Counted from the first letter of the stretch, positions 1 to 55,667 are shown. The stretch is DNA of 64,000 nt from Candidatus Bathyarchaeota archaeon (GCA_963717465.1 OY970340.1:1568001-1632000), one strand, 5' to 3'. Numbers and translations: made by a program. The notes: generated from the sequence alone by a model not told the origin.

Positions 1-727
1 AGAACTCATTTTTAAGGACGTTACTTGCAAGCTTCTTGAACGCTGTAGCCTCAACTGAGGAAGGGTAGGCCTCAATAACAGTTTTGTTTATGCGATCACA
101 GACCTGAACAATTTCCGATGTGGGAGCCTCACCGATGATCGGCGTCTGGATTGCACGAGATAACTGTTCTATGTACTTGCGGCCTTCATCGCTTGCCTTG
201 TTGTAGAGGAGACCGCATACTTTAACTTTTAACGATTTGAAACCATGGCAGAGATTGTTTGCGGCAAACAACGACATAAAATCATCTGAGGACACAATGA
301 AAGTGTCTTTTGCATAACCTTCCTTGACCACTATTGCAAGTCCTCCACAAACAATGTCCGCTGGTACATCAAAAATTACCACATCATAAGAGCCGACAAT
401 ACCGCAATCGTTAAGATACTTTAGACCAATAATCAAGCCTCTTCCTGCACAACCTACACCTGGCTCTGGACCTCCGATTTCAACGCAGGATACCCCATTA
501 AACCCAGTTCGCAAAAACAATGAAGAATCAGGCTTCTTGTTTGTTTTCATAATCTCCAAAAGCGGCTTAATCCTCTTACCAACTATATTTATTGCAGTGT
601 CTGATTTGGGATCACAGCCTACCAGAAGAGTCTTAAGCTTTTCGCCTCCGTAAACAGCGGCGATATTGCTTGAAATTGTTGATTTTCCTATCCCGCCTTT
701 ACCGTAGACTGCAAATGTCCTTGTCAT
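1..727 (-). CDS. cfbC: NifH-like ATP-dependent reductase, Ni-sirohydrochlorin a,c-diamide reductive cyclase component (3'-truncated by window edge)
   Basis: Not in the ORF track; translated by hand from ATG at 727: MTRTFAVYGKGGIGKSTISSNIAA...GCDPKSD...GGPEPGVGCAGRG...DIVCGG. Directly downstream of a CfbD-like gene. Confidence 0.88.
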   Translation of the reverse strand, partial: MTRTFAVYGKGGIGKSTISSNIAAVYGGEKLKTLLVGCDPKSDTAINIVGKRIKPLLEIMKTNKKPDSSLFLRTGFNGVSCVEIGGPEPGVGCAGRGLIIGLKYLNDCGIVGSYDVVIFDVPADIVCGGLAIVVKEGYAKDTFIVSSDDFMSLFAANNLCHGFKSLKVKVCGLLYNKASDEGRKYIEQLSRAIQTPIIGEAPTSEIVQVCDRINKTVIEAYPSSVEATAFKKLASNVLKNEF

Positions 728-728
728 T

Positions 729-1814
729 CTAGCCAACCGCCTTTCTCAGGGCGTATCCAAATCTTGATTGCTGAACCCGTTTATCTACTCCAAGGGAAAC
801 TGCGTGAGCGTCTCTATCAGCAACGGCAAATGTGTATCCGAGAGTTTTCAAATTTGATATTGCTCTGGTACCTACGGTGACAACTACGCATTTCATGGCA
901 TTTTCCAATTCTACGGCATGAGGTATCCCTGCAATAATGGCAATGTCAGGGGGATCATTTAGCAAAAATTCTTTTGCTTTAATGCCAGTTAATGGGTACT
1001 CATCCAGTCCTCCAGTGATGAAATCTAATTTTACCTGGTTATCTTGCAAGGTCTTGCGTACTGTGGATGCATATGATCGTATCCTTGGCAACCCAATATT
1101 CTCATCAAGGTTTGCAATGTATCTAACCTTCGCTCGACTCCTGACTGCCACTTCATTCATTGCAAGCAGAACGTCTGAGTAGAGAAAAACGGTCTCTTTC
1201 TTTGCGTTAAGAACGCAGTCTATGCGAGCACCTTCTTTGGCCAGTTTTATGATTGAGCGGGCGACTGCTACTGGATTATCGCCAGGCTTAGGCTCAAGGT
1301 ACTCACCCCTAGCGGTTCCTCTTTTCTTTTCTAAATCGGTTGCCATTTCTAGCATTTTTTGTTGGCGATTGAATTCTTCTTGTGGGATAAGACCGAGACC
1401 TACTGCTTCTTTTAGCACCATTACGGCGCCAACAGTGTTATCGCCACTCCCACTGTGGACATTACAGCATATCGTCTTCTTGGATACGCCTGCTTCTTGT
1501 GCAACTTTCTTGAGGTCTTCTCCAATAATCATGCTAGCGCAGCTGCCGACAAGCCCTATCAAGTGTGGACTGAAAAGTTCATCAACTCTTTTGAGAACCT
1601 TTGCAAGCTTTTGCTCAGCGCCGAAGACAAAATCATCATCTGTCAACGCAGTAGTTATTACTTTCACTCCGTCTTTTTCAAGGAGCCGCGCTGGTCTAAA
1701 GCAGCATCCCGATGGACCATGTAAAACTATTACATCAGTGTTAAGATCCCTCAGAGTGTACATTGCGGCAGCAAGCGGACTTGGTCGAGGATGCATAATA
1801 ATTGACATATTCAA
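729..1814 (-). CDS. cfbD: Ni-sirohydrochlorin a,c-diamide reductive cyclase catalytic subunit (NflD/CfbD)
   Basis: N-terminus HPRPSPLAAAMYTLRDL..VIVLHGPSGCCF..ARLLEKDG; LNAKKET and GGLDEYP motifs; 361 aa; cfb context. Confidence 0.9.
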   Translation of the reverse strand: MNMSIIMHPRPSPLAAAMYTLRDLNTDVIVLHGPSGCCFRPARLLEKDGVKVITTALTDDDFVFGAEQKLAKVLKRVDELFSPHLIGLVGSCASMIIGEDLKKVAQEAGVSKKTICCNVHSGSGDNTVGAVMVLKEAVGLGLIPQEEFNRQQKMLEMATDLEKKRGTARGEYLEPKPGDNPVAVARSIIKLAKEGARIDCVLNAKKETVFLYSDVLLAMNEVAVRSRAKVRYIANLDENIGLPRIRSYASTVRKTLQDNQVKLDFITGGLDEYPLTGIKAKEFLLNDPPDIAIIAGIPHAVELENAMKCVVVTVGTRAISNLKTLGYTFAVADRDAHAVSLGVDKRVQQSRFGYALRKAVG

Positions 1815-3112
1815 CGCCGCTCCAAATACAATACTGATTTACCATTTAGCGAATTCATATCAACAATTTTCTTATTCTTTAACAATGACTTTACAGCATC
1901 TCCGAGCTCGCCAAATAGCGCTACTTGGTTAACTTGGCTGCAATTGTTTATTACATTTGCAAACTCGTGTATGTCCATAAACCCGCAGGTTGTCTTGATC
2001 GTCCCGCCGATGCATAGCGAAACAGGAGAAGAATAAACTTCAATAAAATCGTTAATGGATTGCTGCAACGACACTGGATTAATCGAGGAGCTGATATTAA
2101 CAATTCTTTTTGGAACTTTTTCGTCAAGAACCATCTTATTCGCTACGCCATCAAAACTTTCCAATTGTGCAATCTCCTTATCGCCTCCACCTAGAAAGAC
2201 TACGATGGTCAATGCAAGCAAAAGGTTCTCTACATGTTGCCTTCCAACTAATCTGGAACTGGCATACACTGGGTACTTTTCAGAGACATGTTTTCCTTTA
2301 AAATTTTGAAAGTTGTTAAATGTGGCATTGAACCTGATGCCGGGTGCACTTAACTGAACACTGTCAGCAGTGACTTCAGCTGTTTTTCCCATGGTGGAAA
2401 ATCGCTGCACATTTTCGAGAGCACAGAGCAATGGATCGTCAGCGTTAACAAGCGTAAAAGCAGATGGTCGCTTGTTTTTAATCATTGATGTCTTGGCATC
2501 GAAAGCGTGTAGAGTCTCAGCCGCAATCGGGTAATTATCGTATACGTTCTTTATGATTCCCAGATCGGCGAGGCCTGTTCCGCCGAGCGATACCTCAAAT
2601 ATGGCTGCGTCGAATGGTTTGGGGCAAAGCCTGACTGCTCGAATAATGTTTGCTGGTGTTGTGCTGACTTTTCCAGTTAGAGGCGTTACTGTGCCGCGGT
2701 TAACGTGAAAGATGCCCTCACTAGTTAGTGCAAGTATTGAGAGCCGACTCTTAATCATGTGCAGAGCAGCTAGTATAGTTTCAGTTTTTCCATAGCTTCC
2801 CGTAATTTCGACGACAGGGCACTTTAATTCTTTTTCCAGAAGATAATTGACTGCTTGATGAGCGGTAATTACACGTTTGTTTTTCAGGTCACCGAGACGT
2901 TTCCTTGGGAAGTGAATTGGGCTTATTATAAGATCAAATCCATCAAGATCTGGCAATTCTTTTTCTATTCTGAAGGTTCCTTTGAAGTTATCCGCGACTT
3001 CTTTGCTGACGGTTTTGTGTACATCTGCACATACTACCTCGTAGCCTTTCTTCACGTATTCTTCTGAAAGGGTGAGGCCGCCGTGTGTTGCATCAATCAC
3101 TAAAACTTTCAT
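1811..3112 (-). CDS. cfbE: Coenzyme F430 synthetase (Mur-ligase-like)
   Basis: VIDATHGG start, SPIH, VEITGSYGKT P-loop, FEVSLGGTG, YPIA, KTTCG; lies between cfbA and cfbD. Confidence 0.85.
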   Translation of the reverse strand: MKVLVIDATHGGLTLSEEYVKKGYEVVCADVHKTVSKEVADNFKGTFRIEKELPDLDGFDLIISPIHFPRKRLGDLKNKRVITAHQAVNYLLEKELKCPVVEITGSYGKTETILAALHMIKSRLSILALTSEGIFHVNRGTVTPLTGKVSTTPANIIRAVRLCPKPFDAAIFEVSLGGTGLADLGIIKNVYDNYPIAAETLHAFDAKTSMIKNKRPSAFTLVNADDPLLCALENVQRFSTMGKTAEVTADSVQLSAPGIRFNATFNNFQNFKGKHVSEKYPVYASSRLVGRQHVENLLLALTIVVFLGGGDKEIAQLESFDGVANKMVLDEKVPKRIVNISSSINPVSLQQSINDFIEVYSSPVSLCIGGTIKTTCGFMDIHEFANVINNCSQVNQVALFGELGDAVKSLLKNKKIVDMNSLNGKSVLYLERR

Positions 3113-3502
3113 TTAAAGCGCCTCTGCAGACGAAATGACGTCGCTGAGTATGTCAATTAGCCGTGGGTCTTTTCCGATTGGTTCAGCGTACACGAGAAGA
3201 ACCTCTTTATCCTTAGCTTTTAATGTCCTCTTTTTGGTGCCTGGCTTTAATCCTAATTCTTCAGGTATATCTTGGTCAATATGAATTCCTCTTGCCAAAA
3301 AGACGGGGACAACTATTATTTTCTCCATGCCAGCATCTATCGCTCTTTGCATAACTGTTGGAATCGACGGATCGTTGATTTGCATGAATGCTGAAGAAAC
3401 AAAATCATAGCGACTCTTAAGCTTTGAAGCGTAGAATTCAATCGTTTCTTTGTTGTATGGTTCTTTGCTTCCGTGTCCTACTAAAATTATTCCAGTTTTC
3501 AT
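3113..3502 (-). CDS. cfbA: Short class II sirohydrochlorin chelatase (CbiXS/CfbA, probably nickel-inserting from context)
   Basis: ILVGHGS and VPVFLARGIHIDQDIP motifs, YAEPIG..PRL; 129 aa. Confidence 0.8.
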   Translation of the reverse strand: MKTGIILVGHGSKEPYNKETIEFYASKLKSRYDFVSSAFMQINDPSIPTVMQRAIDAGMEKIIVVPVFLARGIHIDQDIPEELGLKPGTKKRTLKAKDKEVLLVYAEPIGKDPRLIDILSDVISSAEAL

Positions 3503-4974
3503 TAGTTTTGCTTTCCCTCCTTTAGTTTCATTAAAACGCCATCAAGCGTGTGAACATCAGATACCTCAGGGTTAAGATTATACACGTCCAGTTCCTTAGC
3601 TGTCTCAGAACCAATACATACAGTTCTCACTTTCTTTAGCTTTGAGATAAGATCATCAAGAGCGTCTTTAAGCTTGAAGTATTCAATTATATAGTGAACT
3701 GAGGATCGGCTTGTAAAAACAACCGTGTCAACGCCACTTGCGAGTTGTTTGTAAAAGCTTTCTAGACCTTGCTCGTCTCGTTCTGTTCTGTATAGCTTGA
3801 ATTCGGTGACTTTCATGTTGGCGCTGTGAAGCTTTTCGGAGAGAGAACTGTCAGCAAATGTGCTCCGCACTAATGCAACGCGACCCAACTCGCCTTTTTT
3901 ATCGATTAGTATTTCAAGGAGTCCAGTGCTGCTGAAATCCGAAGGAATAGTTTCGACGCTAATGCCTTTTGCTTCCAAAGACTTCTTTGTAGATGGCCCA
4001 ATAGCGTAGACCTTTACGCGTGACAAATAATCGAGATTTTCACGGTCAAAGTTAATCATGTCTACGGCTCTTGGGCTCATGAAAACAAGCGAATCGAATA
4101 ATTTTGATTTTAAGGCCGCAAGAAAAGCAGTTATTTCTTCTTGGTTGGCAATCAACTTTATAACGGGCGTGACGATGGGAGTGAATCCTGAAGTGAAGAA
4201 TTTTGAGGCAATAGATGTATCTAAAGAGGTTAAAAGAACCTTATTAGTACTCAGTGCTTTTGCAACTACATCGCCTATGACCACAACTACTGAATCTGCC
4301 TTTTCACTTACTTTGTCAGCAATGGTACTCACTGTTCCAAGAGTGACCGACAGGTCTTTTCCCTTTAGCGTCAGGGCCGCCACAGCCTTTTCTGGATTCA
4401 TCCCGCTGCCCATGAACGTTTGCATAATGCTCAGGAGGTTTTTCTTTGCCATCAACAATACAATTGTTCCATCGAATTTCGCATGCTTAGCAAAATAAGA
4501 TGCGTCTTCAGGCGATGCATGATGCCCCGTTAAGATCAGAATTGAAGATGAGACTTCCCGTATAGTTAAAGGGATACCAGCAAAAGTGGGTATAGCAATT
4601 GCAGAAGTTAAACCGGGAACCAACTCAAACTCGATGCCTGCATCTTTCAGCGCGAGCAGTTCTTCCCCCCCTCTGCCAAATATGAACGGATCGCCACTCT
4701 TTAACCGGACAACCGATTCGCCTTCATTCGCTTTTGTAGTTAAAGTTTTGATTATTTCTTTTTGAATAGCTGGGTCATCACCAGGCTCTTTTCCCATATA
4801 AATCAATTCAACGCCTGGTTTAGCTAATTCAATTACAGAGCTGTCAACAAGCCGATCATACACTACTACATCCGCCTCAGCTATCACCTTCGCAGCCTTG
4901 ATAGTGAGAAAATCTATACTGCCAACGCCCGCACCAACCAGATACACCTTTCCTTTTATCAGTTTAGCCTCCAA
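3502..4974 (-). CDS. cobA/hemD: Uroporphyrinogen-III C-methyltransferase / uroporphyrinogen-III synthase fusion
   Basis: N-half VYLVGAGVG, YDRLV, RLKSGDPFIFGRGGEE; C-half FMSPRAV, AIGPST, VFTSRS, CIGSETA. Confidence 0.9.
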   Translation of the reverse strand: MEAKLIKGKVYLVGAGVGSIDFLTIKAAKVIAEADVVVYDRLVDSSVIELAKPGVELIYMGKEPGDDPAIQKEIIKTLTTKANEGESVVRLKSGDPFIFGRGGEELLALKDAGIEFELVPGLTSAIAIPTFAGIPLTIREVSSSILILTGHHASPEDASYFAKHAKFDGTIVLLMAKKNLLSIMQTFMGSGMNPEKAVAALTLKGKDLSVTLGTVSTIADKVSEKADSVVVVIGDVVAKALSTNKVLLTSLDTSIASKFFTSGFTPIVTPVIKLIANQEEITAFLAALKSKLFDSLVFMSPRAVDMINFDRENLDYLSRVKVYAIGPSTKKSLEAKGISVETIPSDFSSTGLLEILIDKKGELGRVALVRSTFADSSLSEKLHSANMKVTEFKLYRTERDEQGLESFYKQLASGVDTVVFTSRSSVHYIIEYFKLKDALDDLISKLKKVRTVCIGSETAKELDVYNLNPEVSDVHTLDGVLMKLKEGKQN

Positions 4975-5873
4975 AACGTCTTAACTATCTCGTCTTCAAG
5001 CATCAGTTGAGCAGCACGCCTACCAGACAATACGGGGTCGCCGAACCCCATATCTATAGATTCTACCTTAAACTTGGCACCATCTACAGAGTAAACACCC
5101 GCGGTTATTCTCAGTCGCCCGTCTTTTGCAGTGGCTGTGCAGCCAACTGGCGAGGCGCATCCTCCACCTAAAGTTCGCAGAAATTCCCGTTCAGCCAAAA
5201 CTTCAGCTTGATATGCAGGAGAATTTATGCTTGCAACTAAATCCGTCAAGTACTGGTCAGAGGAAGAATTGCGAACAAGCACGCAGATTGCGGCTTGACC
5301 TGGGCTTGTCGGAAATGACTCTATGCTAAGTCGCTCTACAGTCTTCGGTAGCAAGCCAAGCCTCAAAAGTCCAGCTTCGGCTAATACAGCGCCATCGCAG
5401 GATTCGCCCATTACTTTCTTAAGTCTCGTGTCTACGTTGCCTCTCAGTGGAAGGATCTGGAGGTCTTTCTTGACAGCCATTAATTGTGCTTTTCGCCTCA
5501 CACTGCTAGTGGCCAATTTTGCGTGCGCTGGTAAGGCTGCGAGTGACGGGTAGCGGGCGGAGATGAAAACATCATTCGGTGATTCGCGGTCAGGAATCGC
5601 ACCTAGTTTGATACTTGGTGAAATGTTTAAGGGCACATCCTTCATGCTGTGGACTGCCAAATCAATCGTTCCGTCTATTAATGCGTTATCAACTTCTTTT
5701 TCAAAAGCGCCCTCACCAATCTTGTGCATCGGCGTGCGCGTTATGATGTCGCCTTGTGTTTTTATTGGGACAACTTCAAACTGGGCATCTGTGAACTTGG
5801 CTAGTTTATTGATTACAATGTCTGTTTGTATTAGTGCTAGTTTGCTGCCTCTTGTCCCTATTTTGATCTTCAT
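4959..5873 (-). CDS. hemC: Hydroxymethylbilane synthase
   Basis: IGTRGSKLALIQ, AVHSMKDVP, TSSVRR, LRGNVDTRL, GGGCASPVG. Confidence 0.96.
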   Translation of the reverse strand: MKIKIGTRGSKLALIQTDIVINKLAKFTDAQFEVVPIKTQGDIITRTPMHKIGEGAFEKEVDNALIDGTIDLAVHSMKDVPLNISPSIKLGAIPDRESPNDVFISARYPSLAALPAHAKLATSSVRRKAQLMAVKKDLQILPLRGNVDTRLKKVMGESCDGAVLAEAGLLRLGLLPKTVERLSIESFPTSPGQAAICVLVRNSSSDQYLTDLVASINSPAYQAEVLAEREFLRTLGGGCASPVGCTATAKDGRLRITAGVYSVDGAKFKVESIDMGFGDPVLSGRRAAQLMLEDEIVKTFWRLN

Positions 5874-7135
5874 TAAGGTTTCACTTGAGTCTGATTTACC
5901 GATTTAATCGAGATCTTCATGGTTTCGATGGTTTTTTCAATGTCTTCTTTTGAGTGTGCAGTTGAAAGGAAAGAACATTCAAATTGAGAAGGAGGTATGT
6001 ACACTCCGTTGTCTAAGAGCGATCTGTGGAACTTTTTGAAGGTTTCAAGCTTAGACTTTTTCGCCGAGGCATAATCGATTACCTTCTCAGACGTGAAGAA
6101 TACTGTAAAGATGGATGCTAAAATTGATAAGTAAAAATCTATTTTTTCGTCGCTTAGAATGTCGCTGATTGCTGAGCATAAAGAGCTAGTGTTCTGCCTA
6201 AGCTGGCGGTACAGTGATTCGTCGAGTTTTCGCAAAGATGCAATGCCGGCTGCCATGCTTAGAGGGTTGCCATTGAAAGTTCCAGCGTTATACATGCGGC
6301 CCTCAGGAGCGACAAGATGCATAATATCCTCTCTACCCCCAAAGGCTCCCATTGGGAGACCACCACCTAAGACTTTACCAAGCGTTGTTAGGTCCGCATG
6401 CACATTATAGTACTCTTGAGCACCTCCTTTTGCGATTCTAAACCCTGTTATGACTTCATCAAAAATGAGGAGGGCACCAGTCTCATCGCATCTTCTTCTG
6501 ATCTCGTCAAGAAAGCCTGAAAGAGGCTGCACAAGTCCTATATTTCCCATAACTGGTTCAACTATTACGCAAGCAGTTTCTTCTCCTATCTTATCTAAAG
6601 CGTGAAAATCGTTGAAAGGAATAACTTTAGTCTTCTCGGCTACCACTTTGGGTACTCCATCTGAAAAAGGAGCCTGAGAAGTACCTACACCATTTACCAT
6701 TAAAGAGTCCACTGCGCCATGGTAGCAGCCGTCAAACTTGACGACGACCTCTCTTTTCGTGCAGGCCCTGGCCAGCCGGATGGCATTGGTTGTAGCCTCA
6801 CCTCCAGAGTTCACAAATCGTAACTTTTCAATAGAAGGAAAGGCTTTCTTAACTTCTTCTCCGAGCATAATTTCAAGGGCTGAAGGTGTTCCGTAAACTG
6901 TTCCTTTTGAAAGTTGATCTTTCAAAGCGTCTACAATAAATTGTGGTGAATGCCCAAATAGCAAGACCCCGTACGCCATACAGTAATCGATGATTTCTCT
7001 TTTATCAGCAGTGTAAAGCCTTGAACCGTGGGCATGATCTGTAAAAAAAGGATAAGGATCAAAATATCTCACCGGACTGTTGACTCCTTTCGGAAATATC
7101 GCTGAGCTTCTGGAGAAGAGTTCCTTTGAGTCCAT
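5873..7135 (-). CDS. hemL: Glutamate-1-semialdehyde 2,1-aminomutase
   Basis: GVNSPVR, FDEVITGFR, TLGKVLGGGLP, AGTFNGNPL, PSQFE. Confidence 0.96.
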   Translation of the reverse strand: MDSKELFSRSSAIFPKGVNSPVRYFDPYPFFTDHAHGSRLYTADKREIIDYCMAYGVLLFGHSPQFIVDALKDQLSKGTVYGTPSALEIMLGEEVKKAFPSIEKLRFVNSGGEATTNAIRLARACTKREVVVKFDGCYHGAVDSLMVNGVGTSQAPFSDGVPKVVAEKTKVIPFNDFHALDKIGEETACVIVEPVMGNIGLVQPLSGFLDEIRRRCDETGALLIFDEVITGFRIAKGGAQEYYNVHADLTTLGKVLGGGLPMGAFGGREDIMHLVAPEGRMYNAGTFNGNPLSMAAGIASLRKLDESLYRQLRQNTSSLCSAISDILSDEKIDFYLSILASIFTVFFTSEKVIDYASAKKSKLETFKKFHRSLLDNGVYIPPSQFECSFLSTAHSKEDIEKTIETMKISIKSVNQTQVKP

Positions 7136-8113
7136 TTACTTGTCCTCTTTTAGCCATTCAATCAACTGCGGAGTGAAGTATGAGATTATGATATCGGCGC
7201 CAGCTCGTTTCATAGAAAGCACGGTTTCTAATGCTACCTTCTTCTCTTCAGTCTTTGTGTGTTCACAATACAATTTGATCATCACGTATTCGCCGCTAAC
7301 TTGAAATAGGGCAAGAGGTCGATAGAAGCGTCTCTTGATTTGAGCTGCAATATCAAGGCAGGGAAGAGCTGGCTTAACCATAAGGATGTCCGCACCTTCC
7401 TTGACGTCTAATGATGCTTCTAGTAGAGCTTCTTTCTTGTTGCGAACATCCATCTGGTATGATGAGCGATCACCGAATGCTGGTGAGGAACCGACTACTT
7501 CTCTAAATGGGCTGTAGAGAGAAGAAGCATATTTTGTGGTGTATGACATTATCAACGTGTCATGAAAGCCATTGCTGTCAAGCATGGTTCTTATGGCAGC
7601 AACCTGTCCATCTGTCATCGCTGAAGGCGCCACAATATCTGCTCCAGCTTCGGCATGGCTCACAGCTACTTTGGCTAAAGACTCGACAGTCTTTGTGATG
7701 TTAATTCGCCCATTATCATTTATTATTCCACAGTGACCATGACTCGTATATTCGCAGAGGCAAACATCAGTTATCAAATTAAGGGTTGGAAATTCTTTCT
7801 TTAGAATTCTTAACGACTCTTGAACGACGCCGTCTTTTGCATACGCATCTGATCCTAAATCGTCCTTCTTTGAGGTTATTCCGAAGATAATTACAGAATT
7901 AAGACCATTTTTCCAAATGGGACGAACATAGTCAGCGACTTGATCTATGGGCAGTCGCATTAATCCAGACCTGAAGACCTCCTCGATCTTTCCACCTTTT
8001 TTTACGAAAAGAGGAAGAACCAAGCTTGATGGATTTAAACTGGTTTCAGCTACAAGATTTCTTATCGCGGGGGACTGTCTCAACCTGCTGGGCATAATTG
8101 CGTTCATTAACAC
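7136..8113 (-). CDS. hemB: Porphobilinogen synthase (Zn-type); start may be ATG at 8107
   Basis: DVCLCEYTSHGHCG, APSAMTDG, YQMD, MVKP, QVSGEY. Confidence 0.96.
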   Translation of the reverse strand: MLMNAIMPSRLRQSPAIRNLVAETSLNPSSLVLPLFVKKGGKIEEVFRSGLMRLPIDQVADYVRPIWKNGLNSVIIFGITSKKDDLGSDAYAKDGVVQESLRILKKEFPTLNLITDVCLCEYTSHGHCGIINDNGRINITKTVESLAKVAVSHAEAGADIVAPSAMTDGQVAAIRTMLDSNGFHDTLIMSYTTKYASSLYSPFREVVGSSPAFGDRSSYQMDVRNKKEALLEASLDVKEGADILMVKPALPCLDIAAQIKRRFYRPLALFQVSGEYVMIKLYCEHTKTEEKKVALETVLSMKRAGADIIISYFTPQLIEWLKEDK

Positions 8114-9359
8114 AAACCTCCTTTAGGATATTGCGAAGAATTTTTACGTGATCAGCATGATTTTCAGATTCTCGTAAGGGTTTTATGAATGGAATCATCA
8201 GGTCGCGCATTAGGGAATATGAAAAGTCGCTGATTACTTTCTTCTGTGCCTCGTCAAATTCCTCTTCTTTTAGGGCTCGCTCTAAATTCTTCTGTCTTTT
8301 TTCTTCACTCCAATTCATAAAGTCAGAAATCAAACTTGAATGCGGTGCCACTTCAATCCTCTTAAACACGTTTTTGATGTCTTCATCGATGATCTTTTCA
8401 GCTAGAAGGATGGCAGATTCCTTTTTGCGCTGATTATTTTTCGCTTGGTCTGCCAATTCATCAAGGTCAAGCAGGTCTACACCACGCATCTCCTTAACAA
8501 TTGGGTCTACAGCCCTTGGATTTGACGCATCGATAAGGAGAAGATTTCCTTTCTTTCCGTCTTGCTTTCTCCGCTTAAGGGCAGAAGCAACATTGCTCGC
8601 TGAAATTATTCGATGAGGTGCTGAAGTTGCACAAACGGCGACATCAGACTTGGCAAGAACTTCTTCAAGTTTATCAAAGTTGACTGCTGTGCCGGATAAC
8701 ATCTCCGCAAGTTTTTTGGCTCGGGTAAAAGTTCTGTTTGCAACAAGGATTGTTTTTGTTTTTTCTTTTGCCACAGCTTTAGCCACTATGCTTCCGATTT
8801 TTCCAGCACCGATGATAGCAACCGTTCGACCATCGAAAGACTTTAGCTTTGATCTAGCTAACTTCACAGCAAGGTTTCCTATGGACACAGTGCCCTTGCT
8901 TATAGTGGTCTCTCTTCTGACTTTTCTCCCAGCTTGAACAGCACTTGTAAATAGCAGGCGCAATTCAGAACCTACTGTGCCAGTGTTACGAGCTAAATTG
9001 TATGAGTCTATAACTTGGTGAAGGATTTCATTCTCGCCAAGTAAAAGAGATTCAAGACCTGATGCAACACGAAATATATGCTTTACCGCTTGGGCATCCA
9101 AGTAAACATCTGCGAGATCTTGAGAAGAATAAACATTCGATGATTTTTCGCAAAGAAGAGATTTTAACATTTCAGGTTTAAGCCCTTCTAAGCTGCTTAT
9201 GTATATCTCTACTCTATGGCATGTCTGAAGTATCACACATTCAGCTACGCCCTCTACCTGTTTGAGCTCAAGCAAAGTTTTGCTGACATTCCTGAATGTG
9301 AAATTTTCCAGTATCCGAACAGGAACCCTTCGGCAGCTTATAGAGACACAGCTAATCAT
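8046..9359 (-). CDS. hemA: Glutamyl-tRNA reductase
   Basis: LQTCHRVE, VASGLESLLLGENEILHQ, IIGAGKIG, ANRT, D.SNPR. Confidence 0.95.
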   Translation of the reverse strand: MISCVSISCRRVPVRILENFTFRNVSKTLLELKQVEGVAECVILQTCHRVEIYISSLEGLKPEMLKSLLCEKSSNVYSSQDLADVYLDAQAVKHIFRVASGLESLLLGENEILHQVIDSYNLARNTGTVGSELRLLFTSAVQAGRKVRRETTISKGTVSIGNLAVKLARSKLKSFDGRTVAIIGAGKIGSIVAKAVAKEKTKTILVANRTFTRAKKLAEMLSGTAVNFDKLEEVLAKSDVAVCATSAPHRIISASNVASALKRRKQDGKKGNLLLIDASNPRAVDPIVKEMRGVDLLDLDELADQAKNNQRKKESAILLAEKIIDEDIKNVFKRIEVAPHSSLISDFMNWSEEKRQKNLERALKEEEFDEAQKKVISDFSYSLMRDLMIPFIKPLRESENHADHVKILRNILKEVCVNERNYAQQVETVPRDKKSCS

Positions 9360-9400
9360 CTATATCGCGCCCATCCTATTGGGAGGCTCTCTTTTTAACG

Positions 9401-9424
9401 TTTTTGTTTCATATGAAACAAAAA
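9401..9424. promoter_or_regulatory. Perfect 24-bp palindrome upstream of the hem/cfb operon (candidate operator)
   Basis: TTTTTGTTTCAT|ATGAAACAAAAA, immediately upstream (on -) of a TTAAAAA TATA-like box at about 9392-9398. Confidence 0.55.
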
Positions 9425-9959
9425 TTTATTACATGTTTTAGTTGACCGCTGCTCAAAAAACATCAGCACAAGCATCCGAAGACGATGGAAAAGGATGAAG
9501 ATTAAATATAAGCGTCTGACACGTTGCCAAACAAACTGAGAAAAAATTAGAAATTTTAAAATTACAGAAAAATAACATTATTTTTAGGAGAGCTGATTCC
9601 TTTTAGTCAATCAAAAGAGAAATGCAAAGTTCTCTATTGTAAACTGAAAATAATTGTCCCCGACAAATTTACTATCAAAGAATATAAAAGAAAAACCGAT
9701 TACATTTTGTTAAGCCCACGAAAGCACATTTCCAAAGAAAAAGATAATTCTTATTCCATAACAGACGAAAGCGGAGAAAAAATTCCAAATATCGAATTGA
9801 TTTTGGTAACCAAATGCAATTTTAAAACCGAAGAAGTCAACGTTTCCGCAGATTTTTTCAGCCTTAAAGGATTGCCGAAAAATATTGCGATAAGAAACAT
9901 TATTTACTGCAAACCGTCAACAGAGGAAACTTGGGAAGTAACCATCTAAGCAAATGAGA

Positions 9960-10634
9960 TTAAGATAGAAAGATTGCAATACACTTAATGGTCGCCCAAA
10001 GAATTCGCATGTTAGCTTTTAATGTACCGCCTATTCTAGGATTTTTTCTCCTCGAAGGCGGCAAATATTGTATATCCTTGATTTTAAGATTATTCTTTTT
10101 TGCGAGGACAATAAATTCGCCTCCAAAGGTTTCTCCTCCTTTAAGGTTTAATTCTGAAACGAATTCTTTTTTGAAAACACGGTAATTCGAAAATGAATCA
10201 GTCACGCCGACAAGTTTCCCCAATGTTTTAGAAGCAATTCTTTCTGAAAAACGCGGGATAATTGTACGAGAAGCAGAAACAACATCAAATTCACCAATAA
10301 ATTTTACGAGCACAGGTATAAGATCAGGGTTGTTCTCCAAGTCAGAATCAATCGTGACAATAACAGGATACTTTGCCAGTTTCATTCCATAAAGCAAACC
10401 TTTTGTTTGGCCTTCCCGTTTTTTTGTCACTGCCACATCTGCAAAACGCTTGGCAACTTCAAATGTGCCGTCTTGCGATTCATCGTCCACAACTATTATT
10501 TCATACACATTCGGTTTTAGGACTTCTCTTACTTGCCTGATTAACTCAGCAATATTTTCTCTCTCATTCCAAGTAGTAGTAACGACTGAAATCCCAGGCA
10601 CGCTTGAATTATTCTGCAATTTTTTCAGTTTCAC
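9960..10634 (-). CDS. GT2 glycosyltransferase (polyprenol-phosphate glycosyltransferase-like)
   Basis: VVTTTWNERENI, IIVVDDESQDGT, TIDSDLEN. Confidence 0.85.
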   Translation of the reverse strand: MKLKKLQNNSSVPGISVVTTTWNERENIAELIRQVREVLKPNVYEIIVVDDESQDGTFEVAKRFADVAVTKKREGQTKGLLYGMKLAKYPVIVTIDSDLENNPDLIPVLVKFIGEFDVVSASRTIIPRFSERIASKTLGKLVGVTDSFSNYRVFKKEFVSELNLKGGETFGGEFIVLAKKNNLKIKDIQYLPPSRRKNPRIGGTLKANMRILWATIKCIAIFLS

Positions 10635-10727
10635 TTCATCATTGCTAAATTAAATAATTTTCGCCAAAAAAGAACAAGCAATTACGCAAAGAAACTAAAC
10701 TTTTCATTTTCTGGATTTTGCAATTTT

Positions 10728-12329
10728 TTATTGAAGCTTGAGTATTTTCATAACCTTTTCCAGTAAGTTAAAGATTTTGTGCGCAAGTTTACCTACGAAT
10801 CCGATTTCGCTTGTCATTGCCCGCAAGTTGCTAATGTCCGAACTTGTGACTGATCTAGTCAGTACTATTGACAAAAAAAAGACCACGATAAATACCACTA
10901 CGCCGATGACAAGCTGAACCCAACTTGAAAAACTCAGCAATGAGACGATCAAGTAAGTTACGGCTGCAGTTATTGCGGCTGAAAGAAGAATTTTTGCAGA
11001 TGAGATCCAATCAACGCTTACTTCATAATGTTTTTTTAACCATCGTAAACCTATGAAAATGCTTGGGACCACGCTTGTAAGCGATGTCGCTAAAAGTCCT
11101 AAGACTCCAAACCGCATGATTAGGATGAAACCCATTGGAAACCCTATAACTGCTTGAAGAATTGTTAATTTTAGTGCATAGACGGTTTGCCCTTGACCGT
11201 TTAGTAAGTTGCCTATGCTCAAGTTTCCTAAGGCAGTATACAGGTAGTTTATGCAAAGCAGAGAAAGAAACAAGGGAGCCAAAGTAAAAGTCTGGCCGAA
11301 AAGAGTTTGAACCGCCGGTCCAGACAGGCACATCACAAGCGCTGCTACAGGAACAACAAGAAGAGAAGCGTACTTTACTGAAAATTGAAAAACATTTTTT
11401 AGGGCTTCTTTGTCTCTTTGAAAATCTAGTTTTGAAAAAGCTGGAAAAAGCATTGTGGTTATTGGAGTGGCAAAGAAACCTATTAAGACCACAAAGTTTT
11501 GAGCAATGTAATAGTTACCAAGCACTGTGTTCTGTGCAGAAGGATATACAATAGGTAATAAGAGTGTGTAAAAAGCGGTAAGAAAACCTGATATAATGGC
11601 GGCTATTGATAAAGGCATTCCGTAGCCAAACAATTTTTTGATATAGGATATTGTATTCCTTCGAATCGTTGTTGGTTTAGGCAATTTTTTGTAGATAGTC
11701 CACATGAGCAAGATTCCGATTAATCCAGCAATAAAAGTACCCACCGTGTATCCGATAACCGCTCCAGAAGTTTCTAAGCCTACGCTTAATAGTGTTATTA
11801 CAAGCCCAAGTGAAACAAGTGTTTTAATTATGGATTGACAAATGAGCATTATACTGTTTAACTGCATTTCTTCAACGCCAGTAAAAGCACCTGCTGCAGC
11901 ATTGATCAATCCTCCCGCAAAGATGGAAAATGAGGCAATTTGAATTAATGGAGCAATTTCTGGTCGGTTGAATACAGTTGTCGCTAAAAAGCCTGAAAGT
12001 GAGAATGAAATTATGGAAAGTACCAAGCCTAAAGCTATCTCAAAAATTAATCCTGACAAGAAAACGCTTCTAATTTCATAGAGTCGATCTTCTGCCTTAT
12101 ATTGGGCAGTGAATCGAACCATTGCCGAATTTACGCCCCAATCTCGAAATAGCAAAATTAAGTTTGGCACAACAAAGGCAATTCCGTACACACCGTAATT
12201 GCTTGATCCTAATAATCTAGCGATGAATATGAGACCTATAGCCGATATGACTTGGGATACTACCAGTCCCCACATGTAGTTGAAGCTTCCTTTAGCTGAA
12301 ACCTTTCCGATGTCTGCGGCTTTGCTCAT
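10728..12329 (-). CDS. Oligosaccharide flippase (Wzx/RfbX-like MOP family)
   Basis: Many TM segments; IARLLG..YGVY, LFPAFS; likely start MSKAADIG at 12329. Confidence 0.85.
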   Translation of the reverse strand: MSKAADIGKVSAKGSFNYMWGLVVSQVISAIGLIFIARLLGSSNYGVYGIAFVVPNLILLFRDWGVNSAMVRFTAQYKAEDRLYEIRSVFLSGLIFEIALGLVLSIISFSLSGFLATTVFNRPEIAPLIQIASFSIFAGGLINAAAGAFTGVEEMQLNSIMLICQSIIKTLVSLGLVITLLSVGLETSGAVIGYTVGTFIAGLIGILLMWTIYKKLPKPTTIRRNTISYIKKLFGYGMPLSIAAIISGFLTAFYTLLLPIVYPSAQNTVLGNYYIAQNFVVLIGFFATPITTMLFPAFSKLDFQRDKEALKNVFQFSVKYASLLVVPVAALVMCLSGPAVQTLFGQTFTLAPLFLSLLCINYLYTALGNLSIGNLLNGQGQTVYALKLTILQAVIGFPMGFILIMRFGVLGLLATSLTSVVPSIFIGLRWLKKHYEVSVDWISSAKILLSAAITAAVTYLIVSLLSFSSWVQLVIGVVVFIVVFFLSIVLTRSVTSSDISNLRAMTSEIGFVGKLAHKIFNLLEKVMKILKLQ

Positions 12330-12810
12330 GCAGTCGTCTATCCTTTTCTTGAATCTTTTTTGAATTAACACTTGTTTAATTAGGATATGTTTATCAGTTG
12401 CGGTCTTTTTTCAAAAGAAAAACGTGAAAAAAAGTCTATTCGAAGTATGCCTATCATTTTGGACTTTTCGTATTCAAGAAATCACTCAAGAATGTGAAAT
12501 TCCAATTTTGACCCATCAGATCCAGAACAATAGGTTTTTTGATTGTCTGGTGAGCGAGCCGTTGTTATTTAAATCTGACCTCCAAGCTGTCTGGCGATGG
12601 CAGTTTTAATACTGCGTATTAGGGTTGTGCTCAAACCCAGCTGAGAGGGATAAGCAGGTAAACTCACAGAAATGTTTTCTGTCTCTTTCAAACTCAGGTG
12701 TATTATTTTTTACGCGCATCGCCAACCAAGTGTGGGTGCGAGAAACAATAGCATGAGTTGAACCTTTTATACGCCACACGTTTTTTAATCTTTTTTTCAT
12801 AAAAGTTAGA

Positions 12811-12917
12811 TGGCGCCCAGGCCGGGATTCGGACCCGGGTCCTGCGGGCGACAGCCGCATATACTATTCCGTCAACATGAATTAATTCATGCTGAGACCG
12901 GACTATACTACCTGGGC
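12811..12917 (-). tRNA. tRNA-Asp(GTC) with encoded CCA and a ~31-nt intron in the D-loop (about 12866-12896)
   Basis: Acceptor stem GCCCAGG/CCTGGGC-G-CCA, anticodon arm TGCGG CT-GTC-GC CCGCA, T arm CCGGG/CCCGG. Removing the intron gives 76 nt. Confidence 0.92.
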
Positions 12918-12966
12918 TATTGTACGTTGGCTTAAGCGCCGCAACAATAAAAACTGTTTTAGCTAA

Positions 12967-13467
12967 TTAACCTTTCTCGGCAAGGTTTGTATTCGGTTTT
13001 TGATGTTTTTTGCCTGTCAGGTCTTTCAAGTCGATCTTGCCTATGCTCGTTGATGCGAGTTTTTCTGGTTTAACTTTTGCCAGTTTATCTTCTGGGTTGG
13101 CAGAGAGCTGCCTAACTAACACTTCTAGCGCATGCTGCTTCTCCCTGAGGTCATCAACCTGGAAATACTCTCCTGAAAAATGCACTGATACGTAGGCATA
13201 GTCACACTCGTTCGTTACACCGTAATCCAGTATCGCTTGTCCCCAAACTTTGTTGTTTGATCTTAAATAGGCTAGTTTTTTGCCTTCAGGTGCACAGTGG
13301 AAGTATAGACAATTCTTTGCTTCATCATAGCCATGGCTTAATGAAACCAGATACGGCTCGTCATCCACGCAGAGGGCAACAGTAACATACTTGGTACTTT
13401 TTAGCACCTGTCGTAATTCATTTTGATCCGTGATTTCCCTATCTTTACGCCGAACATGAAAAGACAT
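12967..13467 (-). CDS. Pyridoxamine 5'-phosphate oxidase-like flavin-binding protein (NimA/NimC-like)
   Basis: RRKDREI, PYLVSLSHGY, LYFHCAPEGKKL, YVSV, LTGK. Confidence 0.85.
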   Translation of the reverse strand: MSFHVRRKDREITDQNELRQVLKSTKYVTVALCVDDEPYLVSLSHGYDEAKNCLYFHCAPEGKKLAYLRSNNKVWGQAILDYGVTNECDYAYVSVHFSGEYFQVDDLREKQHALEVLVRQLSANPEDKLAKVKPEKLASTSIGKIDLKDLTGKKHQKPNTNLAEKG

Positions 13468-13592
13468 ACCTCAAAAATATTTGTTCATATAATATTAACT
13501 TTTAGAACATGTATGTTTGTTACCTTTCGGTCTTCGAGAAACTGAAAGCTAATCTGAGAACAAAAAGAAAAATTGCATTTATCCAGATAATG

Positions 13593-15681
13593 TTATTTGT
13601 CGATTGAAATTCTGCTTGTGCCTGCTTCTTTCTCTAGAATTACAACGTGTTCAGCTTTACTTGCGAAGGATTCACTGTGCGTTACGGCAATGATTTGCTC
13701 AATTGCTTTGAATCGGGCTATTGCCTCAGCTAAATGTTCGATGCTGCCGTCTTCATTTCCCAAGTTTTCCGTAGGCTCATCTAGTACAAGCATGCTTAAT
13801 CCGTGCCCAGTTCTTGATTGCATGATGAGTTGTCCTAAACCTAATCGATAAGCGAACGCAAGTAATGTTCGCTCGCCGCCAGAAAGATTTGCAACCTCAC
13901 GATTTACTCCAGATTCGCTTTTGACATACGGCGTATATGTATCGTCGATAATTACGTTCAAAAATGCGGTTTCGCTGCCTACTAAACCATCTAAAACCTG
14001 TTGAACGAAACTTCGCAAAACACCCACGAACTCGCTTCGCAGCAAAGGCTGAACACTCCGATAAGCATCCCGAACAGCGCCTAAAACCTCAATCGTTTTA
14101 CGAATTTTCTCGACGCGCTCAACCTTTTGCATAGAAACATCAATTCGCTCTTTCAAAATATCCAAACGTTCAAAAAGATCAGCTTTGCGATTTTCCTTAG
14201 TGCGCATGTCAGAATCAACCTGATAGTACTGCTTGAAAAGCTGCTCTCTGCGGGCTTTGGCTGATTCAAGCTCTGATAAATTGAACCTGCTAATTTCAAG
14301 GTTCACTAGTTCAAGTTGATTTTGAAGTTCAGCTTCTAACTTTTGCTTGCTCTCAAACTCGCTTGAAATATTGCCCATATTTAGTTCTTCTTCAGAAATA
14401 CGCGCTTTAAGATCGTCAGCTCTGGTAACGCAGTTTTGCAGGTTAGAATATGCTTCAGATGCAATTTTTTTGCTTTTCTTAAGTTCCTCAATTTCAACTT
14501 GCAACTGTTTAATGATTTTTTCTCGTTCACAATTCTCATGTTCAATGCGCGTAAGTAGATTAGTCTTGTATTCACCATCTAATGGTTGCACGCAAAGGGG
14601 ACACTTGTTCTCCTGCGACAACGAAATAGTTCTTTTTTGGTCGGTCTGCAAGCTCCGTAGAAGTTGCTTCTTGCTCAGCTTTTATAGTGCTGATTTTATC
14701 GTCAAAAGATGCCAGAAAAGAACCTAATGCTTCAAAAGGCTGACTTACAGGTAATCCTGCTTGTTCAAGTTTACTTAAACACAATTTAGCTTGGATATCA
14801 ATAGAGTTTTGGCGCTGCAGCAAATTGTCAAGAATAGTTTTTTTACCCTCAAGTCTGTCATTCAATGAAGCAAGTGCATCCTTAAGGTTTAGCAAGTTAG
14901 CGTTTATTCTAGCTTCTTTTCGCTTCAACTCTTCGATTGCCACTTTTTTCTCTTCCAATCGCTTAAGCGTCTGATCAGCATCAGCCAGCACTTTTTTGGC
15001 AATAGCAAGTTTCTGGGTTAAACCTTCAAGATCCATTTCTAAAAGTGCAAATTCTTCACTTGCCCTATTGTATTCAGCGCTGAGTTTTTCCAATCCAGTA
15101 ACATCTGAATCTTTTTCGTAAATTCTCTTCTCGTTATCATAATCTCGTTGATACTGTGCGATGTTGCTCCATGCAGATTCATAATCTGACAGGCCGAACA
15201 ATTCGTCTAAGCGTTTTTGCCTATCGCGTGGTGCTAAATCTAAGAGCTCTTTTAGATGCTCCTGCCTGAACCATACTATTTCACGGTATAGATCTTTATC
15301 CAGACCTGTAATTGCCTTAAACTGTTCAGCAATTGCATCGCTCTTCATACTTGCAATGAGCGTTTCCTCTTCAAACAGTTTAAGCTCCTCAAAATTCTGG
15401 GTTACGCTTTTTCCGCGTCTTTTTAACCCCCGTATTAACTTGTAAGTTTTACCGCTCTGAGTAAATTGAACTGTTACCTTTCCTGAATCTGCTCCTTCGC
15501 GAAGCAGATATTCGAAGCTTCGGCCGATTGAATCGCCGAATAAACCAAAATCCAAGGCATATAAGACACTGGATTTTCCGCAACCCAAACCGCCTACAAG
15601 ACAGTTAAATCCTCTGGTGAATGGCACCGTTGATTTAACGTGAGACCGCAGGTTCTCAAGCTGGACTATTTCAATTTTCAC
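13593..15681 (-). CDS. rad50: DNA double-strand break repair ATPase Rad50, split by a one-base frameshift near 14659
   Basis: Walker A GGLGCGKSS and coiled coil in 14572-15681; zinc hook CPLC, LSGGE, LDEPT and VTH in 13593-14651. Removing one base joins ...EATS to RSLQTDQK. Confidence 0.9.
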
Positions 15682-16895
15682 TTCGTCATCTCCTCGATTA
15701 TCTGCTTCACTTTTTCGTCTTGCTTGCGCGTTAATGGTTCAATCAAATCAATTGCTAAGTGAGCTATTTTCTGCGCTTCTTCATTGCTGTAACGTTCAGA
15801 AAAAATCCGAACAAAATACTCCGAGGATTTAGTCTTTAAATCTTTAAATTCGCCCTCAAAAATTGAGCGGACAAGCTCGTCTGAAACCGCGCTTTCCTTG
15901 AGCATGACAATAGGATGAACAATCAAGGCTTTTTCTGCGGCACTTCTGATTTTGGCTATGTCAACTTCTGCACGGCTTGCTCCTGCTGGTAAAGTGCCCT
16001 TTAATACTGGAATGACGACTGAACCTTCCGTATCATTGTCTTTTACAAGTTGATAGCCTAAATCGCCAATTTTTCCTGGAGCCATGCCTGAAAAGTCATG
16101 ATCGAAAACGACAAATCGTCTTGTACCTGTAAGGTCAACAAAGTCAGGTGTGACTTCGCCTTTTGCGTCAACTTGAACGTGGTAAAAGCCTTTATTGTAT
16201 GCCGCTTCGTCATAACTGACTGTTTCAGTACTTCCGCTATAAGCTAAGTAACCAGTTTTGAATTTGCCCAAGTAACGTTGATGAATGTGACCAGCAGCGT
16301 AATACGTAAAACCTTCAGGTAATTGCTCAGGTGAAATTTCAGCTTCAATGTAAGGTGGCTTAACATTTGGTAGATCAACGGCGCCGTGAAAAACAAAGAT
16401 GCTTCCAACATTTTCTTGAGGTGCTGGAGGATTTTCCGCCATGAATTTTGGCAATGCTTCAGATGTTTTATGCCTGCTTCGAAAATTTGGAACACCATAA
16501 ACGTAACAGCAGTCTAGTTTGCGCCATGATCCTTGGTGCCGAGGTAAATGGTAAATTAGTCCTGCACTATCCAACGGGTAAAGAATTGTTCCGGTGATCA
16601 TATTTGGAGCAGAATCATGTGAACCATCAACTGTCAAAACAGGGATTTGCATGTCTTTTAAGCGTTTGAAGCTTCTGATCGTATTTTCAAGTGTAACGTT
16701 GGATGGTCGGGCTTGGTGGAATAAGTCCCCTGCAATTATCATGAAGTCAGGTTTTAATTCGATTGTTTTATCAATTAATTCTGACAAAGCGTTGTCAAAG
16801 TCTTGTCTTCTCGCTTCCAACCCGTACTGAGAGTAACCTAAATGTAAATCTGAAGCGTGAACAAAGCTGAACGGTTTCAATCTGCTGCTCCCCAT
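15678..16895 (-). CDS. mre11: DNA repair exonuclease Mre11
   Basis: SDLHLG, AGDLF, GSHD, FHG, GHIH, YSGS motifs; overlaps rad50 start. Confidence 0.93.
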   Translation of the reverse strand: MGSSRLKPFSFVHASDLHLGYSQYGLEARRQDFDNALSELIDKTIELKPDFMIIAGDLFHQARPSNVTLENTIRSFKRLKDMQIPVLTVDGSHDSAPNMITGTILYPLDSAGLIYHLPRHQGSWRKLDCCYVYGVPNFRSRHKTSEALPKFMAENPPAPQENVGSIFVFHGAVDLPNVKPPYIEAEISPEQLPEGFTYYAAGHIHQRYLGKFKTGYLAYSGSTETVSYDEAAYNKGFYHVQVDAKGEVTPDFVDLTGTRRFVVFDHDFSGMAPGKIGDLGYQLVKDNDTEGSVVIPVLKGTLPAGASRAEVDIAKIRSAAEKALIVHPIVMLKESAVSDELVRSIFEGEFKDLKTKSSEYFVRIFSERYSNEEAQKIAHLAIDLIEPLTRKQDEKVKQIIEEMTK

Positions 16896-17043
16896 TTATC
16901 CTCCTGGATAGTTACGATTAAATTATGTTTGAGCTTGCTGGATTTTAAGCGTTTAGTTAAAGCCTTCCCAAGCTTTGTTCGGGTTTTATTAGGGGAAACA
17001 TATAAACCTTTAATCTGCAATTTAGCTTAAATTGCGCGATAAA

Positions 17044-17865: not shown

Positions 17866-17977
17866 TAATCTATTGCAAATTCTCAAATTTTTTTAAACAT
17901 GATTTAACGGCCGCTTTATTCAGGAAAGCTTATAGTCTTGCTGCATAAACTTTGAGTACATAGAGTTTAAATCGAGA

Positions 17978-19384: not shown

Positions 19385-19416
19385 TTTCTACCAAAAATAC
19401 TTAAATATAGTTGCTA

Positions 19417-19440
19417 ATAGTATAGTAATAACTATACTAT
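19417..19440. promoter_or_regulatory. 10-4-10 inverted repeat downstream of a TATA box, upstream of the ECF S-component gene (candidate operator)
   Basis: ATAGTATAGT-AATA-ACTATACTAT; TTAAATA at about 19401-19407. Confidence 0.6.
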
Positions 19441-19458
19441 CTGCATAAGGTTATCTTA

Positions 19459-36347: not shown

Positions 36348-36349
36348 TG

Positions 36350-55666: not shown

Positions 55667-55667
55667 A

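Follow-up and report, generated by a model that had tools for sequence, protein, structure and literature searches.

The 64,000-nucleotide stretch of a Candidatus Bathyarchaeota archaeon analysed here (GCA_963717465.1, OY970340.1:1568001-1632000; hereafter the window) opens with nine genes of an 11-gene module for the biosynthesis of coenzyme F430. We read this unit (probability a little under 0.8) as a module that serves a canonical group II methyl-coenzyme M reductase (MCR) encoded in the same genome and that was most likely acquired horizontally as one piece; horizontal acquisition taken by itself we put at roughly three in four. Both the F430 pathway and its client MCR are ordinary; what is unusual is the packaging, which was probably acquired horizontally. 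The tetrapyrrole trunk genes, sirC and a candidate operator form one unit, this unit has been kept across distant lineages, and the module and a full MCR kit occur together in a single species, from a large Bathyarchaeial genus whose other members, as far as sampled, have neither. The window lies on a single contig of 3,053,889 bp, and this genome is coded G000; positions are those of the window unless marked as genome.

Within positions 1-9359 there are nine open reading frames (ORFs), all on the minus strand, in which adjoining genes abut or overlap by 1-68 nt and leave zero intergenic gap, an arrangement that would suit a single transcript. A preliminary description, made from the sequence alone, had named them hemA-hemB-hemL-hemC-cobA/hemD-cfbA-cfbE-cfbD-cfbC, and each of the nine was recovered in its place and matched the family named, as judged by NCBIfam profile scores (in bits) against the curated cut-offs and by Pfam domains (Table 1). 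It had also stated, correctly, that the window holds no mcr gene. Its view of the operon as self-contained stood for the bundling of trunk and cfb genes but not for positions 1-9359 alone, as cfbB and sirC are located just outside; cfbB, absent from its list, turned out to be the next gene after cfbC. The ten genes, in 10.8 kb, and sirC make 11 genes that cover every step from glutamyl-tRNA to F430. If the enzymes work as is established for their families, the module would convert glutamyl-tRNA to uroporphyrinogen III, precorrin-2 and sirohydrochlorin; CfbA would then insert nickel, CfbB amidate, CfbCD reduce and cyclise, and CfbE close the last ring to give F430, which would be supplied to the group II MCR encoded about 83 kb away.

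The family matches differ in strength along the module. In the cobA-hemD fusion, the CobA half (residues 8-238) scored 232 bits with TIGR01469 (cut-off 185) and the HemD half (residues 256-479) 149 bits with Pfam HEM4. With the GTG start listed for it, hemB shares 68 nt with hemA, and its family match begins at residue 7; the true start may lie further inside the ORF. No second copy of hemC was found in the G000 genome by tblastn. The best solved relatives of CfbA were 6m2a and 6m25, with which its GHGS and GIH motifs, presumably those of the metal site, could be aligned. The match of CfbE spans positions 1-406 of the 430 in the NF033197 profile, with MurD as the next best family at 49 bits; the protein shows 60% identity to the CfbE portion encoded in a Bathyarchaeia metagenome-assembled genome (MAG), a portion that itself scores 266 bits with NF033197, no solved relative was found at E <= 0.001, and the position of the gene between cfbA and cfbD is kept in five other clusters. 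For full-length CfbC (265 amino acids (aa), taken from the genome) the top match was NF033200 with 277 bits (cut-off 402), followed by the nitrogenase-reductase-like NF009702 (267 bits) and NifH TIGR01287 (243 bits). CfbB scored 522 bits with NF033195 (cut-off 560) and 522 bits with TIGR00379 (cut-off 261), has a paralogue at 37% identity elsewhere in G000, and on these scores is a putative a,c-diamide synthase acting on Ni-sirohydrochlorin. The preliminary description had made its reading depend on CfbD and CfbE falling within Cfb clades; CfbD is over the cut-off of TIGR03282 and falls inside the Cfb clade in our tree (see below), whereas the support for CfbE consists of the NF033197 match and its place in the cluster. 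Elsewhere in the genome (1350612-1353227) we noticed a second nitrogenase-like set, with a NifH-like gene (39% identical to CfbC) and two NifD/K-like genes; similar genes were present in 6 of 24 congeners, and the set is not part of F430 synthesis.

The cfbABCDE genes for coenzyme F430 biosynthesis in methanogens were reportedly described by Zheng et al. 2016 (Science 354:339) and Moore et al. 2017, with a cluster in Methanosarcina. The five enzyme families CfbA-E are the same here, and hence the chemistry from sirohydrochlorin to F430 would be expected to be the same. In contrast to that set, the cfb genes share here a single operon, free of gaps, with hemA, B, L, C and cobA-hemD, a convergent sirC follows it, the cfb order is A-E-D-C-B, and three of the five proteins score under the F430-specific cut-offs.

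Table 1. Position and basis of identification of the features of the F430 module (window coordinates, except where marked as genome).
Feature	Position	Strand	Basis or remark
sirC-like precorrin-2 dehydrogenase gene	genome 1565920-1566472	+	outside window; convergent with cfbB; ends the block
cfbB, 458 aa	genome 1566576-1567952	-	outside window; directly after cfbC and overlapping it
cfbC, NifH-like ATP-dependent reductase subunit	2..736	-	first 245 codons; gene ends 62 nt past window start
cfbD, catalytic subunit of Ni-sirohydrochlorin a,c-diamide reductive cyclase (methanogenesis marker 13)	729..1814	-	TIGR03282 448 bits (cut-off 268)
cfbE, coenzyme F430 synthase, Mur-ligase fold	1811..3112	-	NF033197 241 bits (cut-off 250)
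cfbA, small sirohydrochlorin nickelochelatase	3113..3502	-	NF033198 136 bits (cut-off 120)
fused cobA-hemD, uroporphyrinogen-III C-methyltransferase and uroporphyrinogen-III synthase	3502..4974	-	490 aa
hemC, hydroxymethylbilane synthase	4959..5873	-	TIGR00212 306 bits (cut-off 164)
hemL, glutamate-1-semialdehyde 2,1-aminomutase	5873..7135	-	TIGR00713 530 bits (cut-off 527)
hemB, porphobilinogen synthase	7136..8113	-	NF006762 411 bits (cut-off 297)
hemA, glutamyl-tRNA reductase, first operon gene	8046..9359	-	TIGR01035 312 bits (cut-off 210); Pfam GlutR_N, Shikimate_DH, GlutR_dimer
intergenic stretch with predicted promoter and right edge of genus-foreign block	9360..9959		congener DNA search
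TATA-like box TTAAAAA, putative promoter element	9392..9398	-	6 nt after palindrome, 32 nt before hemA ATG
16-bp perfect palindrome, candidate operator	9405..9420		TGTTTCATATGAAACA; 46 nt before hemA ATG

The client of F430 was located by a whole-genome search. McrA was found at genome 1663425-1665069 (TIGR03256, 685 and 186 bits), about 83 kb from hemA, in a locus of the order mcrB-D-C-G-A, in which mcrB, D, C and G were recognised through matches to TIGR03257, TIGR03259, TIGR03260 and TIGR03264. The core of McrA scored 562 bits against the canonical MCR 8s7v and 315 bits against the ethyl-coenzyme M (CoM) reductase 7b1s; judged by its sequence, the enzyme is a canonical group II MCR and not of the alkyl-CoM type. 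The closest named McrA proteins, from an Archaeoglobi MAG (75% identity), Korarchaeum sp. (72%), Methanosuratincola subterraneus (72%) and Nezhaarchaeales (70%), suggest a Thermoproteota-type affinity, and an intact McrA of 556 aa from elsewhere is 90% identical to that of G000. Beside the mcr operon there are hdrA2-B-C, mtaA and the genes for a corrinoid protein and its activase; the same block includes methanogenesis markers 8, 7, 17, 15, 5, 6, 3 and 2, atwA (component A2), a NifB-like radical SAM gene, cysteate synthase, a fused comDE, and lipoate ligase and lipoate synthase genes. Of these, atwA and markers 3, 5, 6, 7, 15 and 17 belong to the MCR activation genes. The block extends over about 50-60 kb, from genome ~1644100 to 1695000-1704000, beyond the end of the window. 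Since a canonical MCR and its accessory genes are present, F430 can be taken to serve MCR. The preliminary description had left two options, an MCR or its alkyl-type relative elsewhere in the genome, or an F430-like compound put to some other use; the former proved true, and with MCR present the latter is not needed.

The search for mcr, mtr and CoM genes that the same description had proposed thus yielded mcrBDCGA and the CoM synthesis genes, and MtrA was not found in G000. In the absence of MtrA, the host looks like a methyl-reducing methanogen, as in other Thermoproteota, and its predicted gene set looks like that of such an organism. The host had been described as Bathyarchaeia-like and of non-methanogen type. 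The latter is contradicted by the canonical mcrBDCGA and full MCR accessory gene set in the same genome; the former agrees with SecY encoded in the window, which was 74-80% identical to its best 119 homologues. Five of its seven organism-named matches were Candidatus Bathyarchaeia or Bathyarchaeota, the other two carrying bacterial MAG labels on short contigs, and in a SecY tree (FastTree, 120 proteins, midpoint root) G000 was placed 7 nodes deep, in a clade of three rows with 97% support. Two further gene groups in the window are candidate electron routes to heterodisulfide reduction: a HoxE/HoxF/HoxU-like module joined to VhuG/VhuA-like hydrogenase subunits (34388-39181, minus strand), and a GlcD-like flavoprotein adjoining an HdrD/TfrB-like CCG-domain protein (54227-56870, plus strand).

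The same gene order was found in distant genomes. A metagenome contig (L054, 15.5 kb, GC 61%) carries the identical ten genes in the order hemA-B-L-C-cobA/hemD-cfbA-E-D-C-B, at 52-69% identity, followed after cfbB by an intact convergent sirC and then cbiMNQO. We also compared six genomes of the families f46 and f67 over about 20 kb around cfbD. Two members of f46, G611 (closed, 1.52 Mb) and G723, have the identical ten genes in identical order at 40-64% identity, with a convergent sirC and a divergent nikABC-like importer after cfbB; G639 and G716 have cfbA-E-D-C-B alone, and in two f67 genomes the genes are scattered. Thus the three superclusters share with G000 the ten-gene order and orientation, the convergent sirC after cfbB and an exact copy of TGTTTCATATGAAACA before hemA. 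They differ in that the proteins are only 40-69% identical and the hosts belong to another class, and in that a nickel/cobalt importer (nikABC-like or cbiMNQO) and a second palindrome follow, whereas the block of G000 ends at sirC, 35 bp from the native deoA, with no second palindrome. It looks like what remains of a larger ancestral unit after a cut at sirC.

The palindrome before hemA is the only match to TGTTTCATATGAAACA in the window at <=2 mismatches (expected 0.04; one match was reached in 4 of 100 shuffles) and the single exact copy in the 3.05 Mb genome, for which base composition predicts about 0.003. The exact sequence stands at the equivalent place before hemA in all three other superclusters, with A/T-rich boxes 4-8 nt after it in each. 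Copies with 1-2 mismatches precede cfbA in G639, G716 and G778, and further copies are located between sirC and the nickel/cobalt importer genes in L054, G611 and G723. Four of five f46 genomes scanned had 2-3 sites each at <=1 mismatch (G858 had none), compared with 0-1 for the reversed control. Additional sites (loci L090, L091, L092 and L095, each at 1501; genomes G723, G716 and G639) lie ahead of genes for a BtuF/FhuD-type ABC importer (three genomes) and a BchU-like methyltransferase (one genome), which hints that tetrapyrrole import or tailoring may belong to the same regulon. The palindrome looks like the binding site of a dimeric regulator, through which F430 synthesis and nickel supply would be controlled together. 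The NikR operator of E. coli and Helicobacter has two half-sites separated by a long spacer; the motif described here is a compact 16-bp palindrome without a spacer.

Several observations indicate that the module is foreign to its genus. When a 20-kb query was searched as DNA against five good congeners, just short, weak matches were obtained in 1-9900, as opposed to 64-72% identity from about 10.1 to 19.4 kb, and the gene on the left flank, deoA (AMP phosphorylase), is native, being 76-82% identical to its congener counterparts. In two closed congeners rbcL and deoA are adjacent; in G000 they are about 41.5 kb apart, and the module starts right at deoA. The module is thus absent from close relatives and its native flanks are conserved, as in a genomic island. 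Its CobA is 43-48% identical to the separate CobA of congeners, which have separate cobA and hemD genes; the cobA-hemD fusion was found in 0 of 40 relatives, and cobA was present at all in 13 of 24 congeners, within a cobalamin cluster. HemL reaches 47-49% identity with the congener proteins, compared with 64% for the L054 copy, 59% for that of G723 and 57% for that of G611. On these identities the trunk genes of the operon appear to be xenologues. At 43.5%, the GC content of the operon exceeds the 40.1% of the genome as a whole and ranks in the top 1.4% of 11-kb windows; by tetranucleotide distance the operon ranks in the top 2.9%. The mcr region (genome 1652-1690 kb) likewise has practically zero DNA match in the five congeners, whose matches resume left of ~1644 kb and right of ~1695-1704 kb, and this gene set, too, looks imported. 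The idea of a dedicated, transferable module, put forward in the preliminary description, fits the absence from the relatives searched, the xenologous trunk genes and the recurrence of the ten-gene order and operator elsewhere. A second hemB (genome 2273479-2274465, intact, beside a B12-binding radical SAM gene) and a fragmented second hemA (genome 2248122-2249166), each 38-39% identical to the operon copy, were considered as native trunk genes; this was rejected, as the second HemB is just 37-39% identical to the HemB of congeners.

We surveyed the distribution in species representatives, in which absence means not found in the genomes searched. McrA was detected in none of 24 congeners and none of 16 genomes of the same order; in a wider survey there was one match among 300 family members (G103), and none among the 88 congeners included. 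G103 was rejected as a close counterpart, since it belongs to another genus, its McrA match is a 59% identical fragment and it has no CfbD. CfbD over the cut-off was found in 0 of 40 relatives (the 24 congeners among them), in 1 of 400 other genomes of the class (G474) and in 18 of 400 other genomes of the phylum, namely 14 of the 32 members of family f46, three of f67 and one of f69. G474, an uncultured Candidatus Bathyarchaeia archaeon of another order (locus L028), carries cfbA-E-D-C and an McrA 67-80% identical to that of G000. Fused CobA-HemD had three close homologues among the proteins scored (76, 76 and 51%), followed by matches at 33-38%, of which the organism-named ones were all bacterial. 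In G474 we also noticed that cfbA and cfbE form one ORF of 565 aa (L028 8307-10004; NF033198 123 bits and NF033197 266 bits), a possible chelatase-synthase fusion, and that the cfb cluster adjoins rpoB and rpoA'.

In a CfbD tree (30 rows, IQ-TREE, C20 mixture), with named sequences of anaerobic methanotrophic archaea (ANME) and Methanosarcinales as the outgroup, G000, G474 and L054 formed one clade (99/97); this grouped with a single f46 member (98/96), within a larger clade that takes in the whole of f46 (97/98). CfbD is, on this tree, probably close to f46; an origin from within f46 is not proven. In the scenario we favour, the module with its trunk genes and promoter-proximal palindrome would have been acquired horizontally in one piece, the likely source being a lineage related to f46, a small-genome methanogen family with the same ten-gene order and operator.

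A number of results weigh against this reading. CfbE, CfbC and CfbB all score below the curated cut-offs of the F430-specific models. The composition of the operon is mildly deviant and that of the mcr block not deviant; any transfer would therefore not be recent, or the donor was of similar composition. No integrase or att site turned up, in work that included no search aimed at integrases or flanking repeats, and the queries used detected in G000 no counterpart of the nickel importers that accompany the other superclusters. Constraining f46 to monophyly lowers the log-likelihood by 7 units and is not rejected (approximately unbiased (AU) test, p = 0.087), and for this reason we do not claim that the Bathyarchaeial CfbD is nested inside f46 in spite of its 98/96 support; the tree also fits an old Bathyarchaeial clade that would be sister to f46. 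Beyond the species genomes sampled there are near homologues (McrA 90%, CobA-HemD 76%), and unsampled kin may share the module. Lastly, the reading frame is broken twice in mcrA, once each in mcrB, mcrC and mcrD, and twice in the sirC-like gene, which has to be read in three frames.

These frame breaks bear on the possibility that the mcr operon is a cluster of pseudogenes and the F430 operon a leftover, or a source of a nickel tetrapyrrole for some use other than MCR, and the contrast between at least five frameshifts in about 5 kb of mcrBDCGA and none in 10.8 kb of hem-cfb speaks in its favour. However, frame switches occur throughout G000: alignment with the proteins of one closed congener showed 26 over 54.7 kb of coding sequence, with 16 of 67 genes interrupted, and alignment with those of another showed 7 over 26.8 kb, with 5 of 22 genes interrupted, and housekeeping genes in the window are split as well (Rad50 at 13593-15681, RuBisCO III at 39376-40663 and aspartate kinase at 49411-50823). 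With these three splits in 64 kb the window is the cleaner region overall, and the zero breaks in the hem-cfb operon are somewhat lucky at the sampled rate. Any call of a split gene or pseudogene in G000 must reckon with genome-wide single-base indels. Contigs from a 90-95% identical population (runs X1 and X2) have one base fewer at all three mcr breaks that they cover (L015 8713, 9744 and 11588/9), a coverage that excludes the mcrC break and the second mcrA break. In mcrB, 20 of the 22 listed substitutions (8451-8889) fall at third codon positions of the frame that is valid on their side of the break, as counted from the 40 listed of 381 differences, and P0001 covers all of mcrA when aligned in three frames, with no further frame break by tblastn. 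For these reasons we did not read the mcr and sirC frameshifts as decay; they fit genome-wide assembly noise. As the 90% identical McrA is intact elsewhere, and the whole set for MCR activation and CoM synthesis is present, we regard decay of the mcr operon as very improbable. The same low base-level quality could raise the suspicion that the operon and the mcr block come from a co-occurring methanogen and were joined to this genome by mistake in assembly or binning, as could the place of the operon in the outer 1.4-2.9% of windows for GC and tetranucleotides and the fall in GC from 0.436 to 0.388 at 9.4-9.9 kb. Yet the two functionally complementary blocks, 67 kb apart, share one 3.05 Mb contig, native core genes such as those for SecY and CdvABC occupy the interval, the mcr block has a composition typical for G000, both edges are located in intergenic DNA beside intact native genes, and an independent Bathyarchaeia MAG carries both cfb and mcrA. 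No sign was seen of a chimeric join at 9.4-9.9 kb, a possibility named in the preliminary description, although no read-level test was made. An artefact of this kind thus seems barely credible.

A further alternative is vertical inheritance, in which the module and MCR would descend from a methanogenic ancestor of Bathyarchaeia or Thermoproteota and would have been lost nearly everywhere else. It is consistent with the cfbA-E-D-C genes and McrA of G474 in another order, with the clade of their own that G000, G474 and L054 form in the CfbD tree, in which monophyly of f46 stays acceptable, and with the tetranucleotide make-up of the mcr block, which is the genome's own; the accessible part of Hou et al. 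2023 (PMC10321748) also favours vertical descent for group II MCR in Bathyarchaeia. Against this, very many independent losses would be needed, with McrA found in none of 88 congeners and in a single one of 300 family members, CfbD in 1 of 400 genomes of the class, and G000 itself 7 nodes deep among the 120 SecY proteins. The trunk genes, at 47-49% identity to congeners where native genes reach 76-82%, and the position of the module at a synteny break also argue against descent, which we consider unlikely. Horizontal acquisition of the module as one piece may also be put in a bolder form. The 11 genes and the operator would then be a portable F430 cassette, passed as a single regulated unit from one archaeal class to another, which, with a separately integrated block of 50-60 kb for MCR, its activation and CoM, turned one species of an otherwise non-methanogenic soil or peat-type genus into a methyl-reducing methanogen, a recent and traceable wholesale gain. 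This extension is tentative, and we would give it somewhat less than even odds.

In the searchable literature, with paywalled papers and supplements outside its scope, we found no description of cfbD or cfbE together with hemA or hemL and no paper on F430 biosynthesis with Methanosuratincola, and the sole match to the palindrome motif was unrelated. In the accessible text of Hou et al. 2023 (PMC10321748), three mcr/acr-bearing MAGs are reported among 304 Bathyarchaeia, one of which, a Jinwuousiales MAG, has a group II MCR judged to be vertically inherited (a statement repeated in the accessible part of the review PMC12694404), and 'F430' occurs zero times in the main text. According to the portions available, Adam et al. 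2022 (PMC9635834) list only alkyl-coenzyme M reductase (ACR) for Bathyarchaeia, and a 2025 preprint (10.1101/2025.10.16.682713) shows group II McrA sequences that include a clade of Bathyarchaeia, the habitats including peat soils. As far as the accessible text of PMC10321748 describes it, the Jinwuousiales MAG resembles G000 in being a Bathyarchaeon with a canonical MCR that clusters with those of the methyl-reducing methanogens of Thermoproteota; G000 differs in belonging to a large genus in which none of the 88 other species searched proved to be a carrier, and in that its F430, CoM and activation genes have been mapped.

Whether methanogenesis in Thermoproteota reflects descent or transfer is an open debate, and few archaea are as abundant as Bathyarchaeia in anoxic soils and sediments. 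In G000 the supply of F430 and CoM, the activation of MCR and MCR itself are encoded on one contig, and 88 other species of the genus are without an McrA match; the question of gain versus loss therefore becomes testable at short evolutionary range. The operon of trunk and cfb genes could also provide a compact, naturally optimised template of 10-11 genes for F430 production in a foreign host, and the conserved palindrome a handle on the co-regulation of F430 synthesis and nickel uptake.

A tRNA integration site at the module was also considered and rejected, as ARAGORN reported no tRNA in 1-20000 of the window and Rfam nothing in 9300-13600. There is a tRNA-like gene at about 12811-12917 (minus strand), with a CCA end and an apparent intron, which was missed by both ARAGORN and Rfam; it is located 3.4 kb from the right edge of the module, and its 3' half is 92-98% identical in congeners.

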